Origin: Pseudomonas phage phi9_PA9
Reading direction: 5' to 3' (one strand)
Length of the DNA stretch: 64,000 bases
Sequence record: PQ093904.1
The translations under genes were made by a program, and so were the position numbers. Within the stretch, counting starts at the first letter, position 1, and every line of letters begins with the position of its first letter. This document shows, piece after piece, positions 35,078-43,591 of the stretch. The notes under the pieces are model-generated. The model ran no database searches, was not told the DNA's origin, and saw only the letters and a program-made list of their open reading frames with translations.

Positions 35078-35226
35078 ATGAAAGCATTCGCACTAGTGGT
35101 TATTGGTTTGACTTTTGGTGGACTGTTTGTAAACGCTAAGTTTGAAGAGCAAACTATTTCTAATGAAACTGTTATCCTCGGTCATCGTATCGGTCCCAAT
35201 GGTCAAGAAATGCTCGTAACTAAATA
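35078..35226 (+). CDS. small secreted/TM protein (49 aa)
   Basis: ATG ORF MKAFALVVIGLTFGGLFVNA... with an AAAAGGGA RBS and a conserved upstream element. Below the track size cutoff. Confidence 0.4.
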
Positions 35227-35237
35227 GAGAAATAAAA

Positions 35238-35579
35238 ATGGAAAAGTCCGTAGCAGTTAAAGTAATCGACAACATGTGCCGTCCGAATATCGTTGCTCGC
35301 ATGAATGGTAAACTGGTCTACCATGCTCGTAATGTAAAAATAGTAGAAGGTAAGGATCTATGGCCGAACCGCACTGACGTAGATGATGTTCGTGTACTGG
35401 TCGGTGAAGCCTTCCGTAACGGTGAATGGGTACCCATGCGCAGTTCTAGCCTGGTTAACGTAGATGCTGTTACCGGTGTATACGAAACCCTCAACTCTGT
35501 TTACATTGCTCCGGATCTTCTGGGAAGTCTCTCGGTGGGTCCTGATATCTTCAATGATGATGCAACTTTGAAAGGATAA
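35238..35579 (+). CDS. hypothetical protein (113 aa), GC-rich island
   Basis: ORF with markedly higher GC than its flanks. Confidence 0.5.
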   Translation: MEKSVAVKVIDNMCRPNIVARMNGKLVYHARNVKIVEGKDLWPNRTDVDDVRVLVGEAFRNGEWVPMRSSSLVNVDAVTGVYETLNSVYIAPDLLGSLSVGPDIFNDDATLKG

Positions 35580-35584
35580 TCAAT

Positions 35585-35983
35585 ATGAACTTCATCAAAG
35601 AAAACGCACTTGGTCTTGGTCTTATTGCACTGGCAGTTGGCGCAACAGCCGTTGCTGCCATCCTCGCGGTCAAAGCTACCGTAAAGGAAGACGGTCAGGC
35701 TGTAGCCGAACAGATCGAAAGCAGTATCTCTGATATTCTTATCGATAAGATCTCCACCTACCGTAACAGTGAACAACATCGCAAGCTGGTAAATCATCTT
35801 CGTCGAGATCACGAGTTGGATGTCGCAGAGTTCATCTCACGGACCCAATTGGACATCGCGCTCAACATTCTTCCAGAGGTAGAAGTACTTCTGGAATCTC
35901 ATCGTGATCAGCTGACCGTGGAAGAGTTCGATCGACTGGTTGCAAATCTCCAACATTTCGTGCAACGGATCATCACTAAGTGA
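35585..35983 (+). CDS. hypothetical membrane protein (132 aa), GC-rich island
   Basis: N-terminal TM helix LGLGLIALAVGATAVAAILAV. Confidence 0.5.
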   Translation: MNFIKENALGLGLIALAVGATAVAAILAVKATVKEDGQAVAEQIESSISDILIDKISTYRNSEQHRKLVNHLRRDHELDVAEFISRTQLDIALNILPEVEVLLESHRDQLTVEEFDRLVANLQHFVQRIITK

Positions 35984-36123
35984 AAACCAAAATAGTGGTA
36001 GGTTTTCTTGCAGTTCTAATAGAACTGACCAAACCCGAAGGTAAGGTTTCGAAGGAATGGTGTCAACAGCCGGCTAAACCGAAATGTACTATGTTTGTAT
36101 TTACTATTACTGAGGAATAATAA

Positions 36124-36531
36124 ATGGATAGTCGTCTGTCGAGAGTCTTCCAAAACGTGGACCATGTGTTCACCCAAGAACAGACCAATGAACTGGTCAA
36201 CCGTCGTAATGAAGACATGTTGTTGACTGTACAGGTTGATGACATGTTGGCATTGATCCATAACGACCATGTTAAGTACAGGGACCTAGTAAAGATTATC
36301 ATCGAAGATACTATCGCCTTCATAAAAGCAGAGCGTCTCTCGCTCATTGGTATAGGTCTTTTCAACAAGATGGTCTATGTTGATCAAGGCCCGGATGCTG
36401 TTGGCTTTTTAGAATATATTAAGGTAGCTGAGTACACATCCACTCACGTGGATGAGTCCAATGCATGGGTAAATATGTATCGCAATAAGATAAAGACTTT
36501 CATGCTACCAATTCTCTCTCAGCTTCTGTGA
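36124..36531 (+). CDS. hypothetical protein (135 aa), GC-rich island
   Basis: ORF. Confidence 0.5.
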   Translation: MDSRLSRVFQNVDHVFTQEQTNELVNRRNEDMLLTVQVDDMLALIHNDHVKYRDLVKIIIEDTIAFIKAERLSLIGIGLFNKMVYVDQGPDAVGFLEYIKVAEYTSTHVDESNAWVNMYRNKIKTFMLPILSQLL

Positions 36532-36680
36532 TATGAATAAACCAGCGCCCGAGGGTACTGTCAAAGAACTGACCCAGGAATAAAAGATGGGACTCTTCGG
36601 AGACTCCATCCCAATGTATCTTGGAAAGGATGCATTGGGATGTACATAATCCAAATTAATCGTAAAAAGGAAAATACACC

Positions 36681-41331: not shown

Positions 41332-41670
41332 ATGTCTAGGAAACTTGGAAAGAAGCATCCTGATAATAATCATGTCGATGCCAAGAACTATGAACATCGC
41401 CTGCGTACCGAGAAAGCATCCCTGGCTAATTGCCGCCTGGGGCAGCTGTACTCTGTCCGTATCCTGAACGACAACTGTTTTCTGCGTAATCGTTACATGT
41501 GTAAGACGCAGGATATGTTTGACCCTCTACGTCTTACCCCGGCTAAACGGGAACGTTATTTCAAAGGTGAGCGTTATTGGCTCAATGCTGGATCGGGTAA
41601 ATTCATTCGTTCTGGCTATGAAAAGAACTGGGCTAAGAATAAACGTAAGGAGATGGCAAATGAACAATAG
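41332..41670 (+). CDS. hypothetical basic protein (112 aa)
   Basis: ORF. Confidence 0.5.
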   Translation: MSRKLGKKHPDNNHVDAKNYEHRLRTEKASLANCRLGQLYSVRILNDNCFLRNRYMCKTQDMFDPLRLTPAKRERYFKGERYWLNAGSGKFIRSGYEKNWAKNKRKEMANEQ

Positions 41671-41887
41671 TTATAATCCACTAGTGGACACCGAGACCCT
41701 AATGATTAAGGGTCTTATCGTCGGTTGACGGCATAAATCCCCTACCTTCTGGTAGGGGCTAAATCCCTTTTCATTTCACCAAAGAGTTCGTCTCGGATAT
41801 TTCGCGTTATGGGTACTAACCCAGCAGTAGGAATAAGAAGTAACGCGTAATCTTCTTACATGCTATCAACCAATAGGTATTATTCAC

Positions 41888-42451
41888 ATGGACAAAAAAT
41901 TGAAGGAATTCCAAGCAGCGACCCCTGGTGTTGATCGTTTCGTTTACTACGAGAAGACTGACACCTGGCTTCCGAAGGATACTCGTCCTCTGGATTGTCA
42001 CCGTAATAAAAACGCGATAGCCGCATTCGATAAAGCCAACGAAGAAATCCAAGAACGTTGGTATTATTGGTGCATTGCATGGGAGAAAGCCTCTGTTCGA
42101 CCCACCATGGAAACCGAACTCTGGAAGAATCCGTTTATCTCCGTCGAAGAGCGGCTGGAGATTGCAGAAGGTGCTATTGCATTCCGCAACGAAGTAATCA
42201 GAAATCTCCAGGATCGTTTGGTTTCACCTACCATCGCTGAATTCGAACTCAATGATGAAATGGTGGAGGCTATCTTGGATAGCGATTACACGGTTAAAGA
42301 TTTCGACCGAAACTCTGAATCTGAAGATGGAATCGTTGAACTTCGTTACCAGGTATCCAATAACTTCCACACTCGTGAACTTGCACGTGATACTGTTCAC
42401 CGTATTATCAACGCACTTAAACAACTTACTCCAGTGAAAAGGATGGGATGA
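41888..42451 (+). CDS. hypothetical protein (187 aa)
   Basis: ORF. Confidence 0.5.
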   Translation: MDKKLKEFQAATPGVDRFVYYEKTDTWLPKDTRPLDCHRNKNAIAAFDKANEEIQERWYYWCIAWEKASVRPTMETELWKNPFISVEERLEIAEGAIAFRNEVIRNLQDRLVSPTIAEFELNDEMVEAILDSDYTVKDFDRNSESEDGIVELRYQVSNNFHTRELARDTVHRIINALKQLTPVKRMG

Positions 42452-42454
42452 ATA

Positions 42455-42721
42455 ATGGGTCTTGCTTATGCAGGTTATTCAGTAAAAGCCACTGTAACTG
42501 ACAGAGAAGGGGTAGTCCACGTTTATGACGGGTTCGCTTCTCCAGGTGAAGGTGATAAAGTCTATCCTGGTACTCGCGGTGAAGGTGATAAGCGGCTAGC
42601 AGCTCGCCGGGCTCTTGAAGAGTTTATGGATAGTCCTGTCTTCGATGAGCTAACTGCTGACATGTACGATACGTTCGATGTCCGTTTCAATTCTCTCGTT
42701 CATACCAAAATGCCGGGGTAA
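42455..42721 (+). CDS. hypothetical protein (88 aa)
   Basis: ORF overlapping the previous stop (ATGAATAATGG). Confidence 0.45.
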   Translation: MGLAYAGYSVKATVTDREGVVHVYDGFASPGEGDKVYPGTRGEGDKRLAARRALEEFMDSPVFDELTADMYDTFDVRFNSLVHTKMPG

Positions 42722-43024
42722 CTAATATGACAATGCAACAAAAGAAAGATGGTGAACTCTATACTCACAAAGAGGATGGTGGGATCTACTACTACAATGG
42801 ACTTGCCCATGGTACTGGCGATTAACGAAGTGAATTACTCCATATCTACACCGACTACTTTACCGACGTGACCTTGTTATTATATCGATGGGTATTCCCA
42901 GTATGGTACTCCATCTGCTTTATCGCTGGAAATATAAAAAGCCTACTAAAAAGAAGGTTAAGACGGTATAAAGCCCCTCCCTTCGGGTAGGGGTTGTCTA
43001 TTAATTTTTTAACAGGAAATTCTA

Positions 43025-43360
43025 ATGGAAGACTTCAAAGAAATCGAGATTTACAATATGACATTCATCGACCATTCGGAAAATGCTTCTCGTGTAGTTA
43101 TTGCACAGATCACTACTCTGGATGATCGCACTGTTTACGGGGTAATGGAGGTCAATGGTTTTGGCGGTCAGGCCACTACTAATCTGCGTCGGTTCGAACA
43201 GAATCGTCAGCACGCTCGTTACTTCTTCACCAAGTCAGTAGCCACTGCTCACGCCGAGGCTTACGTCAAGTACCTGAATGACGACATGGTCGAACAAGAC
43301 TACCTCGACATGAATACCGGCTACAACTACGCCGAATTCATGAACATGGTGAATATCTGA
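43025..43360 (+). CDS. hypothetical protein (111 aa)
   Basis: ORF. Terminator at 42968 upstream. Confidence 0.5.
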   Translation: MEDFKEIEIYNMTFIDHSENASRVVIAQITTLDDRTVYGVMEVNGFGGQATTNLRRFEQNRQHARYFFTKSVATAHAEAYVKYLNDDMVEQDYLDMNTGYNYAEFMNMVNI

Positions 43361-43591
43361 GGTCATCATGGTCAAGATGTGCTCGATGTTCGAGTTCAGA
43401 AATTCGCGACTACACTGTCAGTAGGTATCATCCAAGAGAACTGCGGATTAGCTACTTACCTATCATGGGTATTTTCACTAGCAGTATTATAACAACACCG
43501 TACGTTCTGAAAAGATTAGCCCTCCTGTTGCACCAGGAGGGCTATATGTCGTCAAGTTTAAGCTTGACATTTTTGCCCAAAATGGGCTTTC

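Follow-up and report, generated by a model that had tools for sequence, protein, structure and literature searches.

A GC-rich immediate-early gene module of Pseudomonas phage phi9_PA9 probably acquired from a Pawinskivirus-like jumbo phage

We analysed a 64,000-nucleotide stretch of the genome of Pseudomonas phage phi9_PA9 (sequence record PQ093904.1; hereafter, the window), in which an earlier note made from the sequence alone had singled out positions 35078-43560 as a compositional island of small genes. The window comes from a phiKZ-type jumbo phage (genus Phikzvirus): as a whole, it is 95-98% identical in nucleotide sequence to phiKZ and KTN4, and the region under study is 95-97% identical to the Pseudomonas phages phiKZ, KTN4 and PA7, all members of Phikzvirus. 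The island could be aligned to phiKZ and KTN4 over 80-91% of its length, at 95-97% identity and with a gene order that agrees with the annotation, a window position being equal to the phiKZ position plus approximately 30,508. It corresponds to PHIKZ010.1 to PHIKZ023/024 (the orthologous phiKZ stretch tested was 4570-12214), and is located shortly before the terminase gene (43930-46083, minus strand), in the right part of a lineage-specific insertion between this gene and the dihydrofolate reductase (DHFR) gene (32086-32610). The genes themselves are known phiKZ early genes. Proteins gp5-gp14 match their phiKZ counterparts at 100% identity, and gp15, gp16 and gp22 at 90-94%. The composition and relationships of this module suggest that it was exchanged with a phage genus of higher GC content.

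Table 1. Features of the early gene module of phi9_PA9 and its surroundings (window coordinates; identities are to phage PS119XW of the genus Pawinskivirus unless another phage is named; ORF, open reading frame; aa, amino acids; nt, nucleotide)
Feature	Position	Strand	Details
Lineage-specific insertion, approximately 11.3 kb	32611-43929	+	DHFR gene to terminase; PHIKZ005-PHIKZ024; synteny with phiKZ and KTN4
Early (virion RNA polymerase) promoter cassette ATTCAAAC..TTTAAACAGTATATTAC, four copies	32648-32684, 33152-33188, 34653-34689, 35003-35039	+	Repeat search and motif scan
gp10.1, 49-aa membrane miniprotein, first module gene	35078-35227	+	53-59% to PS119XW, phiPA3 and EL homologues
Pawinskivirus-like block A	35171-38877	+	69-89% nt; protein 64-91%
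gp11	35238-35579	+	91% protein identity
gp12	35585-35983	+	86% protein identity
46-aa ORF	35980-36120	+	Codon log-ratio +0.03
gp13	36124-36531	+	73% protein identity
Two hairpins, gp13-gp14 spacer (gp14 5' untranslated region)	36586-36641	+	GGGACTC-TTCG-GAGACTCC and CATCCCAATG...CATTGGGATG, then leader GTAAAAAGGAA
gp14 (PHIKZ014)	36681-37793	+	80% protein identity
Terminator-like hairpin after gp14	37809-37826	+	GGGAGTC-TTCG-GACTCCC and T-tract; from sequence
gp15	37898-38899	+	64% protein identity
gp16, 42.5% GC	38912-39391	+	72.8% to PS119XW 269838-270311; codon log-ratio +0.185
GC trough (37%): gp16.1, gp17, gp18, gp19, 95-aa ORF	39392-40967	+	Not at this position in PS119XW
CCCTCC-type hairpins inside the island	39396-39425 (terminator) and 42975-42993	+	From sequence
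95-aa ORF	40677-40964	+	GC-richer than trough neighbours; codon log-ratio +0.17, PS119XW-like
Pawinskivirus-like block B	40968-43927	+	76-88% nt over 40968-42871 and 43402-43927; protein 83-97%
Holin-family membrane protein	41015-41320	+	97% protein identity (PS119XW gp130)
112-aa ORF	41332-41670	+	88% protein identity
CCCCTACC hairpin, block B	approximately 41739-41758	+	Intergenic; conserved hairpins in block B
gp22	41888-42451	+	90% protein identity
88-aa ORF	42455-42721	+	83% protein identity
gp23 remnant	42727-42871	+	Within block B
gp21	43025-43360	+	No PS119XW homologue; 49% to phiPA3
94-aa ORF	43592-43876	+	83% protein identity
Convergent terminator	43884-43908	+	Right end of block B

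The island contains approximately 20 ORFs, all on the plus strand, and several of them encode small membrane proteins, as the earlier note had described. Ten of these ORFs were scanned against Pfam and PHROG: none of the ten gave a Pfam hit at the curated cutoff, none carried an integrase or transposase domain, and nine matched only PHROG families of unknown function. ORF 36681-37793, which the earlier note had listed as an acidic-tail protein, encodes the known protein PHIKZ014: its product is 100% identical to phiKZ gp14 and, over 370 amino acids, to PDB 8CD1 chain v (E = 9e-255), belongs to the PHROG 16056 family and has an acidic C-terminal tail. Homologues of gp14 were found in Pawinskivirus (approximately 80% identity), EL-like phages (41%), phiPA3 (31%) and few others, and a search of 5.8 billion proteins returned only seven clusters, all from jumbo phages or jumbo-phage-like assemblies. 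Scans for closer gp14 donors gave only EL and phiPA3 in IMG/VR, and none in a JGI metagenome scan. The first gene, gp10.1, is anciently conserved and contains the left recombination boundary; nucleotide similarity to PS119XW begins at 35171. For gp15, a single-sequence AlphaFold model was unusable (mean pLDDT 35). The gene gp23 is cut to approximately 48 codons in phi9_PA9 (42727-43402 region), and gp21 is placed after gp22, while it precedes gp22 in phiKZ.

The tenth scanned ORF (41015-41320, 101 amino acids) matched the holin family phrog_7045 (E = 3e-27 over 85 residues); it is annotated as 'holin' in several records and is without a counterpart in phiKZ. We rejected a holin assignment on the grounds that the gene lies in an immediate-early operon, has no lysis-cassette context and is missing from phiKZ, of which the reported holin is gp142 (PMC12676376). 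A role in lysis is unlikely, and a function at the membrane or in superinfection exclusion is possible.

The four early promoter copies all lie to the left of the module, and the last of them (35003-35039) directly heads gp10.1 and the GC-rich genes; neither the repeat search nor the motif scan detected a copy inside the GC-rich module. Early-promoter-like sites were also observed at 13975 and 62529. The AT-rich early-promoter motif of phiKZ has been described (PMC10914365), and the same consensus occurs directly upstream of the gp10.1 homologue in PS119XW, as well as in phiPA3. In addition, a conserved leader, GTAAAAAGGAA, was detected at 1354, 33208, 34709, 35059, 36662 and 37879, in each case 8-10 nucleotides before the start codon of an early gene; it precedes gp6, gp10, gp10.1, gp14 and gp15, as well as their PS119XW homologues, and looks like a shared strong ribosome-binding leader. 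The two hairpins of the gp13-gp14 spacer, compared in five phages of which PS119XW is one, showed 90% column identity and a single compensatory change from C-G to T-A. Because they are not followed by a T-tract, these hairpins more probably act in the processing, stability or translation of the PHIKZ014 mRNA than as a terminator. The spacer from the hairpin ending at 37826 to gp15 is conserved with PS119XW.

The GGGAGTC/GACTCC, GGGACTC (at approximately 36586) and CCCCTACC stems, which had been put forward as a terminator style distinct from that of the flanks, do exist. However, hairpins of the CCCTCC type, the common phiKZ terminator motif (PMC10914365), also occur inside the island, and a crude genome-wide scan for hairpins with T-tails found a G-rich 5' arm at 19 of 49 sites in phiKZ and 14 of 40 in PS119XW. 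Since both genomes mix C-rich and G-rich arms, we rejected terminator style as a donor signature, and this argument adds little to the interpretation.

Published work on phiKZ indicates when and how these genes act. The RNA-seq source data of Gerovac 2024 (PMC10914614) show gp5-gp23 to be immediate-early genes, with 350-2400 units 2 min after infection and 1700-7300 units at 10 min, while gp1-gp4 and gp24.x do not exceed 25 units. Based on the 98% identity of phi9_PA9 to phiKZ, we infer the same immediate-early transcription here. PHIKZ014 is an immediate-early protein of high abundance, which clamps 5S rRNA on the 50S subunit of the host (PMC10914614), and because the sequences are identical, 5S rRNA and 50S binding should carry over to phi9_PA9 gp14. 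The host-takeover function suggested for the island is supported by the early transcription and by the ribosome binding of gp14, and, from the early timing and the example of PHIKZ014, we infer a host-directed action of the other module proteins. The prediction of an accessory module is likewise borne out, since a phiKZ transposon screen found gp14 to be non-essential and orf1-orf20 to lie in a largely non-essential genome arm (PMC12676376). The gene phiKZ014 is dispensable on strain PAO1, but the deletion mutant fails on the clinical isolate PaLo44 (PMC12571901); from this phenotype, the module possibly also serves in counter-defence.

Next to its gene content, the composition of the module was analysed. 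The island has a GC content of 42.6%, against 36.3% for the remaining window, and is the top 8.5-kb stretch in the 64 kb, so that the proposed GC island is real, although less pronounced than the 45-50% against approximately 32% that had been estimated. In the complete phiKZ genome (280 kb, 36.8% GC), the orthologous stretch ranks first of all 8.5-kb segments, with 42.8% GC compared with a mean of 36.8% and a standard deviation (SD) of 2.0 (+3 SD). The island itself is not uniform, and its profile falls into three parts: 35078-39391 with 44.2%, 39392-41331 with 37.0%, which is a composition typical of phiKZ, and 41332-43360 with 44.4%. GC at first (GC1) and third (GC3) codon positions is raised together, and GC3 is 0.41-0.57 in the rich genes versus 0.22-0.28 in the flanks. 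For codon usage, we applied a classifier based on a synonymous-codon log-ratio trained on the phiKZ and PS119XW genomes with the module excluded, in which phiKZ genes score -0.13 +/- 0.10 and PS119XW genes +0.12 +/- 0.11. The genes gp11-gp16, gp21, gp22 and the 112-aa ORF scored +0.17 to +0.28, and are PS119XW-like (gp11-gp15, in block A, +0.21 to +0.28), while scores ranged from -0.14 to 0 in the trough genes gp16.1-gp19 and from -0.15 to -0.21 in the flanks. Elsewhere in phiKZ, a second GC3-rich early cluster (0.43-0.52) was observed at 110961-113373 (gp109.1 to gp115), at the ancestral early-gene locus; this cluster includes the ribosome-associated gp110; no PS119XW homologues of gp109.1-gp115 were found.

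The genus Pawinskivirus has a matching GC content, with 43.6% in the complete genome of PS119XW (301,543 bp) and 46.5% in HPP-Temi (PMC11591403). Nucleotide alignment of the island to the PS119XW module was limited to 35171-38877 and 40968-43927, at 69-89% identity, and both of these are the GC-rich blocks; the trough gave no nucleotide match except for a weak gp19 hit. The shared intergenic DNA is 85-90% identical, with conserved hairpins and leaders. Adjacent to block A, gp16 resembles Pawinskivirus as well, although its counterpart in PS119XW occupies another locus. Among 194 phiKZ-PS119XW orthologues, those outside the island have a median protein identity of 52.1% (90th percentile 70%; major capsid 68%, terminase 67.5%, tail sheath 69.5%), whereas island proteins reach 80-91% in phiKZ and up to 97% in the window (Mann-Whitney p = 1.3e-4). 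Genome-wide blastn between phiKZ and PS119XW (length-weighted mean 69.3%) gave only seven matches of at least 300 nucleotides at 78% identity or above, and five of the seven fall in the island. Synonymous positions show the excess too, with an identity of four-fold degenerate sites of 0.60 for island genes (0.88 at most, in gp11) and 0.42 for core genes.

The relationships of the island genes conflict with those of the core, as read from three-taxon pairwise identities, a terminase control and four-fold site identity. For core genes, PS119XW pairs most closely with phiPA3 (58-83% protein identity), and phiKZ is about equally distant from both, at 24-69% (terminase: 67.5% to PS119XW and 68.6% to phiPA3). 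For island genes, in contrast, phiKZ and PS119XW are 81-91% identical, and both are only 25-45% identical to phiPA3. The composition of the shared genes follows the same pattern. Relative to PS119XW, the median deficit of phiKZ core orthologues is 6.1 points in GC and 13.2 points in GC3, whereas for island genes it is only 3.2 and 5.4 points (0.5-3.6 GC points of difference for block A genes). At differing four-fold sites, the window has A/T where PS119XW has G/C in 112 cases, against 68 cases of the opposite kind (p = 0.001), which fits partial drift toward the composition of the recipient.

The position of the module differs between the genera. Between DHFR and terminase, PS119XW carries a single DUF1353 gene, without a hit in phiKZ, and phiPA3 carries three small genes. 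The gp14 cluster follows the structural genes gp98-gp102 in three phages, namely PS119XW, phiPA3 and an uncultured one of 196 kb; in the first two, it is followed in turn by the genes for DnaB helicase and major capsid protein. The near-empty DHFR-terminase site, together with this other locus in relatives, indicates that the Phikzvirus arrangement is derived. Composition and locus both point to transfer from a Pawinskivirus-like source to Phikzvirus. The suggestion of an origin from a higher-GC phage thus gains support from the segments shared with Pawinskivirus (43.6-46.5% GC), their excess identity and donor-like codons, the conflicting relationships and the near-empty site. The block was present at the DHFR-terminase locus in every sampled Phikzvirus, although neighbouring genera are without it there, so the first acquisition is older than the radiation of the genus.

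Exchange at this locus has nevertheless continued. In phage fnug, the flanks are 94-98.5% identical to the window, but the gp12-gp14 segment shares only 81% identity with the window, as against 95.1% with PS119XW (2.36 kb), indicating that exchange is recent and that allele replacement is ongoing. The description of the module as recently acquired therefore applies to such replacements and not to its first arrival. In FBPa36, the flanks are 93-97.5% identical to the window and the island 80-85%, and in KEN49 the terminase is 99.4% and gp14 80% identical. Breakpoints were also observed inside gp14, the fnug gene having a Pawinskivirus-type body and the last 25 residues of the window type, and the FBPa36 gene a divergent N-terminal half and the acidic tail of the window type.

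Two further segments shared with PS119XW were noted outside the island. The AAA ATPase gene gp208 (phiKZ 215770-216895; PS119XW 217790-218914) is the most similar gene of the two genomes, with 94.8% nucleotide and 97% protein identity; its GC content is 36.5% in phiKZ and 37.8% in PS119XW, which is low for PS119XW, and it looks like a recent transfer from Phikzvirus to Pawinskivirus. This gene serves as an internal control for direction: its GC is phiKZ-like in both genomes, as expected of a transfer the other way, and composition therefore marks the source in each case. At approximately 22100-23020 of the window, a segment with gp299, gp299.1 and gp300 is 82.8% identical to PS119XW in nucleotide sequence and 86-89% in protein, with a phiKZ-like GC of 36-39% in both genomes, and may likewise have been transferred in this opposite direction. 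It adjoins tRNA genes; the window carries six of these (Thr, Asn, Asp, Met, Pro and Leu; 13832-23633, minus strand), matching the phiKZ tRNA cluster.

Several explanations that dispense with acquisition from a GC-richer genus were weighed. Ordinary compositional heterogeneity of an AT-rich genome could in principle mimic an island, as other patches of 1-2 kb with 42-46% GC occur elsewhere in the window and the genome; given that this is the top 8.5-kb stretch of 280 kb and that its edges coincide with homology boundaries to another genus, we regard this explanation as barely conceivable. Alternatively, the block could be native and vertically inherited, its GC and GC3 resulting from codon selection on abundant early proteins, which the still unmodified machinery of a GC-rich host has to translate, and its similarity to Pawinskivirus from strong purifying selection. 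The module is indeed mildly GC-rich in PS119XW (46.2% GC, z = +1.65 in its own genome) and in phiPA3, the highly expressed phiKZ core genes for ChmA, major capsid and tail sheath also form GC-rich patches, gp22 combines 91% protein identity with saturated four-fold sites, and a local bump in GC and GC3 surrounds the gp14 cluster of an independent, uncultured low-GC phage. In this phage (NODE_14, ENA ERZ17992267, 195,710 bp; 35.9% GC over a 21-kb locus), the cluster lies at 7900-10930, after gp99-gp102 homologues; a gp14 homologue of 38% identity immediately follows one of gp10.1, and GC3 is 0.30-0.45, compared with 0.17-0.29 in structural genes. However, GC3 and mRNA level were uncorrelated in the 21 early genes gp5-gp23 (rho -0.14, p = 0.56), and genes after other phiKZ early promoters are not GC3-rich (0.24-0.32, versus 0.27 for the genome), so transcript abundance was rejected as the cause of the high GC. 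Moreover, codon selection cannot explain the 85-90% intergenic identity, four-fold identities of up to 0.88 or the 95% identical fnug block, nor the conflicting relationships and the different locus beside a near-empty site, and vertical descent with codon selection appears very improbable as a full account.

A transfer in the reverse direction, in which a module native to Phikzvirus was exported to Pawinskivirus, would leave the phiKZ GC content in need of a separate cause. Exchange is two-way in principle, as illustrated by the gp208 and gp299 segments with their phiKZ-like GC in PS119XW, and since the island scores above the average PS119XW gene, the codon classifier does not single out one donor. 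Against export, a GC content of 44-48% fits Pawinskivirus and not Phikzvirus, the PS119XW module has the same position as in phiPA3 and the uncultured relative, with the divergence expected of fast-evolving genes that stayed put, the phiKZ site is a derived insertion, and the window alleles are A/T-shifted relative to PS119XW; we therefore consider export unlikely. Acquisition from a Pawinskivirus-like phage is itself confronted with several observations that weigh against it. Identity at four-fold sites in gp15, gp22 and the 88-aa ORF is only 0.38-0.46, saturated like that of the core, which indicates that the block mixes older and newer events and is not one recent insertion. The three-taxon pattern taken alone could come from a replaced or fast-evolving phiPA3 module. 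No sampled Pawinskivirus exceeds approximately 80-89% identity to the window alleles, which implies that the actual donor is unsampled, and near the island ends we found only short two-copy repeats, none of them convincing and probably chance matches. Of these, the direct repeats at 35152-35216 versus 43361-43385 and 43938-43960 were taken to be fortuitous or left over from the gp21-gp22 junction. Finally, because the PS119XW module is somewhat GC-rich too and the gp14 cluster of NODE_14 shows a local bump in GC and GC3, some intrinsic contribution to composition is likely, and part of the GC excess may be a property of these genes, for example through codon selection.

Taken together, the GC-rich stretch of phi9_PA9 is probably a horizontally exchanged immediate-early operon that serves as a module for host takeover and counter-defence, and the interpretation in the earlier note is supported overall. 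The module starts at the copy of the early promoter at 35003-35039, of the type recognized by the injected virion RNA polymerase, and, with the timing known from the phiKZ literature, would be transcribed within the first 2 min of infection. It encodes approximately 20 small accessory proteins, among which PHIKZ014 would bind the host 5S rRNA and the rest are mostly membrane miniproteins or proteins with no known relatives. A Pawinskivirus-like jumbo phage of Pseudomonas aeruginosa (genome 43.6-46.5% GC, module 46%) would have supplied alleles to the 36.8% GC Phikzvirus lineage, where they now reside in the lineage-specific insertion between the DHFR and terminase genes; the unusual composition would mainly be the unerased signature of this source. 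Since the early promoter consensus is common to both genera, the module could work in either. Its segments have been replaced repeatedly, so that the locus is a mosaic hotspot among Phikzvirus genomes; the trough of low GC (gp16.1-gp19) probably represents Phikzvirus-type sequence inserted into the module. The exchange may have occurred during co-infection, a plausible route because hybrid nuclei form in approximately 25% of phiKZ-phiPA3 co-infections (PMC7804931). Homologous recombination is a likely mechanism, rather than site-specific integration, because donor and recipient are related and already share homologous genes and promoters.

The phiKZ-type chimalliviruses are model nucleus-forming phages and are used in therapy, and the phage nucleus has been argued to limit recombination between co-infecting species (PMC7804931). 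The crossing of a module between Phikzvirus and Pawinskivirus, with a 95% identical block in fnug, indicates that exchange of this kind does occur in nature and that it concentrates on immediate-early takeover genes, including that of the ribosome-targeting PHIKZ014, which is decisive on some clinical isolates. More tentatively, the module may be a portable takeover cassette that crosses nucleus-forming genera, despite their subcellular genetic isolation, by way of a shared virion-polymerase promoter, with allele classes of the gp14 region (phiKZ, OMKO1, fnug/Pawinskivirus, KEN49 and FBPa36) kept by a strain-specific defence arms race and setting host range on clinical P. aeruginosa; we offer this extension as a possibility on which we would not rely. 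The locus provides a concrete site with natural alleles for the study of early genes and host range, as well as a natural marker for cross-genus recombination, and local GC in these genomes could be used as a marker of transfer direction. No description of the cross-genus origin, the compositional anomaly or the hotspot status of this cluster was found in the searchable literature.

The closest known system is the phiKZ early cluster PHIKZ005-PHIKZ023 (PMC10914614; PDB 8CD1), which occupies the same locus and uses the same early promoters. Compared with this cluster, phi9_PA9 differs on the right-hand side, where it adds the holin-family and 112-aa genes that are missing from phiKZ; in addition, its gp22 is another allele (90%), its gp23 is truncated and its gp21 has moved. 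The early module of Pawinskivirus (PS119XW gp119-gp138; also in PA1C and HPP-Temi) has collinear genes with 64-97% protein identity, and shares the intergenic hairpins and the leader; its gp10.1 homologue is likewise immediately preceded by an early promoter. It differs in lying at another locus, with a macro-domain protein on one side and the DnaB helicase and major capsid genes on the other, and in being without gp17, gp18 and gp21 there, its gp16 homologue being located elsewhere in the genome.

With respect to compositional genomic islands, which in the concept of Lawrence and Ochman drift toward the composition of the recipient after horizontal transfer, the phi9_PA9 module has in common donor-matching GC and codons, partial drift, conflicting relationships and a near-empty site in relatives; it differs in the absence of an integrase or transposase from the scanned ORFs and of convincing flanking repeats. 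In the hyperplastic regions of T4-type phages, small early genes are said to be shuffled via promoter/stem-loop cassettes (PeSLs; Arbiol et al. 2010). The module shares with these regions its small non-essential early genes, stem-loops, early promoters and cassette variation among close relatives. Unlike in T4-type phages, the promoter repeats of phi9_PA9 are found only upstream (32.6-35.0 kb), where they flank gp5-gp10.1; the left junction at 35171 is approximately 130 nucleotides downstream of a promoter copy, and the remaining ones fall within coding DNA, with at least one breakpoint inside gp14, or at hairpins that are not repeated. The exchange of this module is a well-supported new example of a known event, the mosaic exchange between phages.

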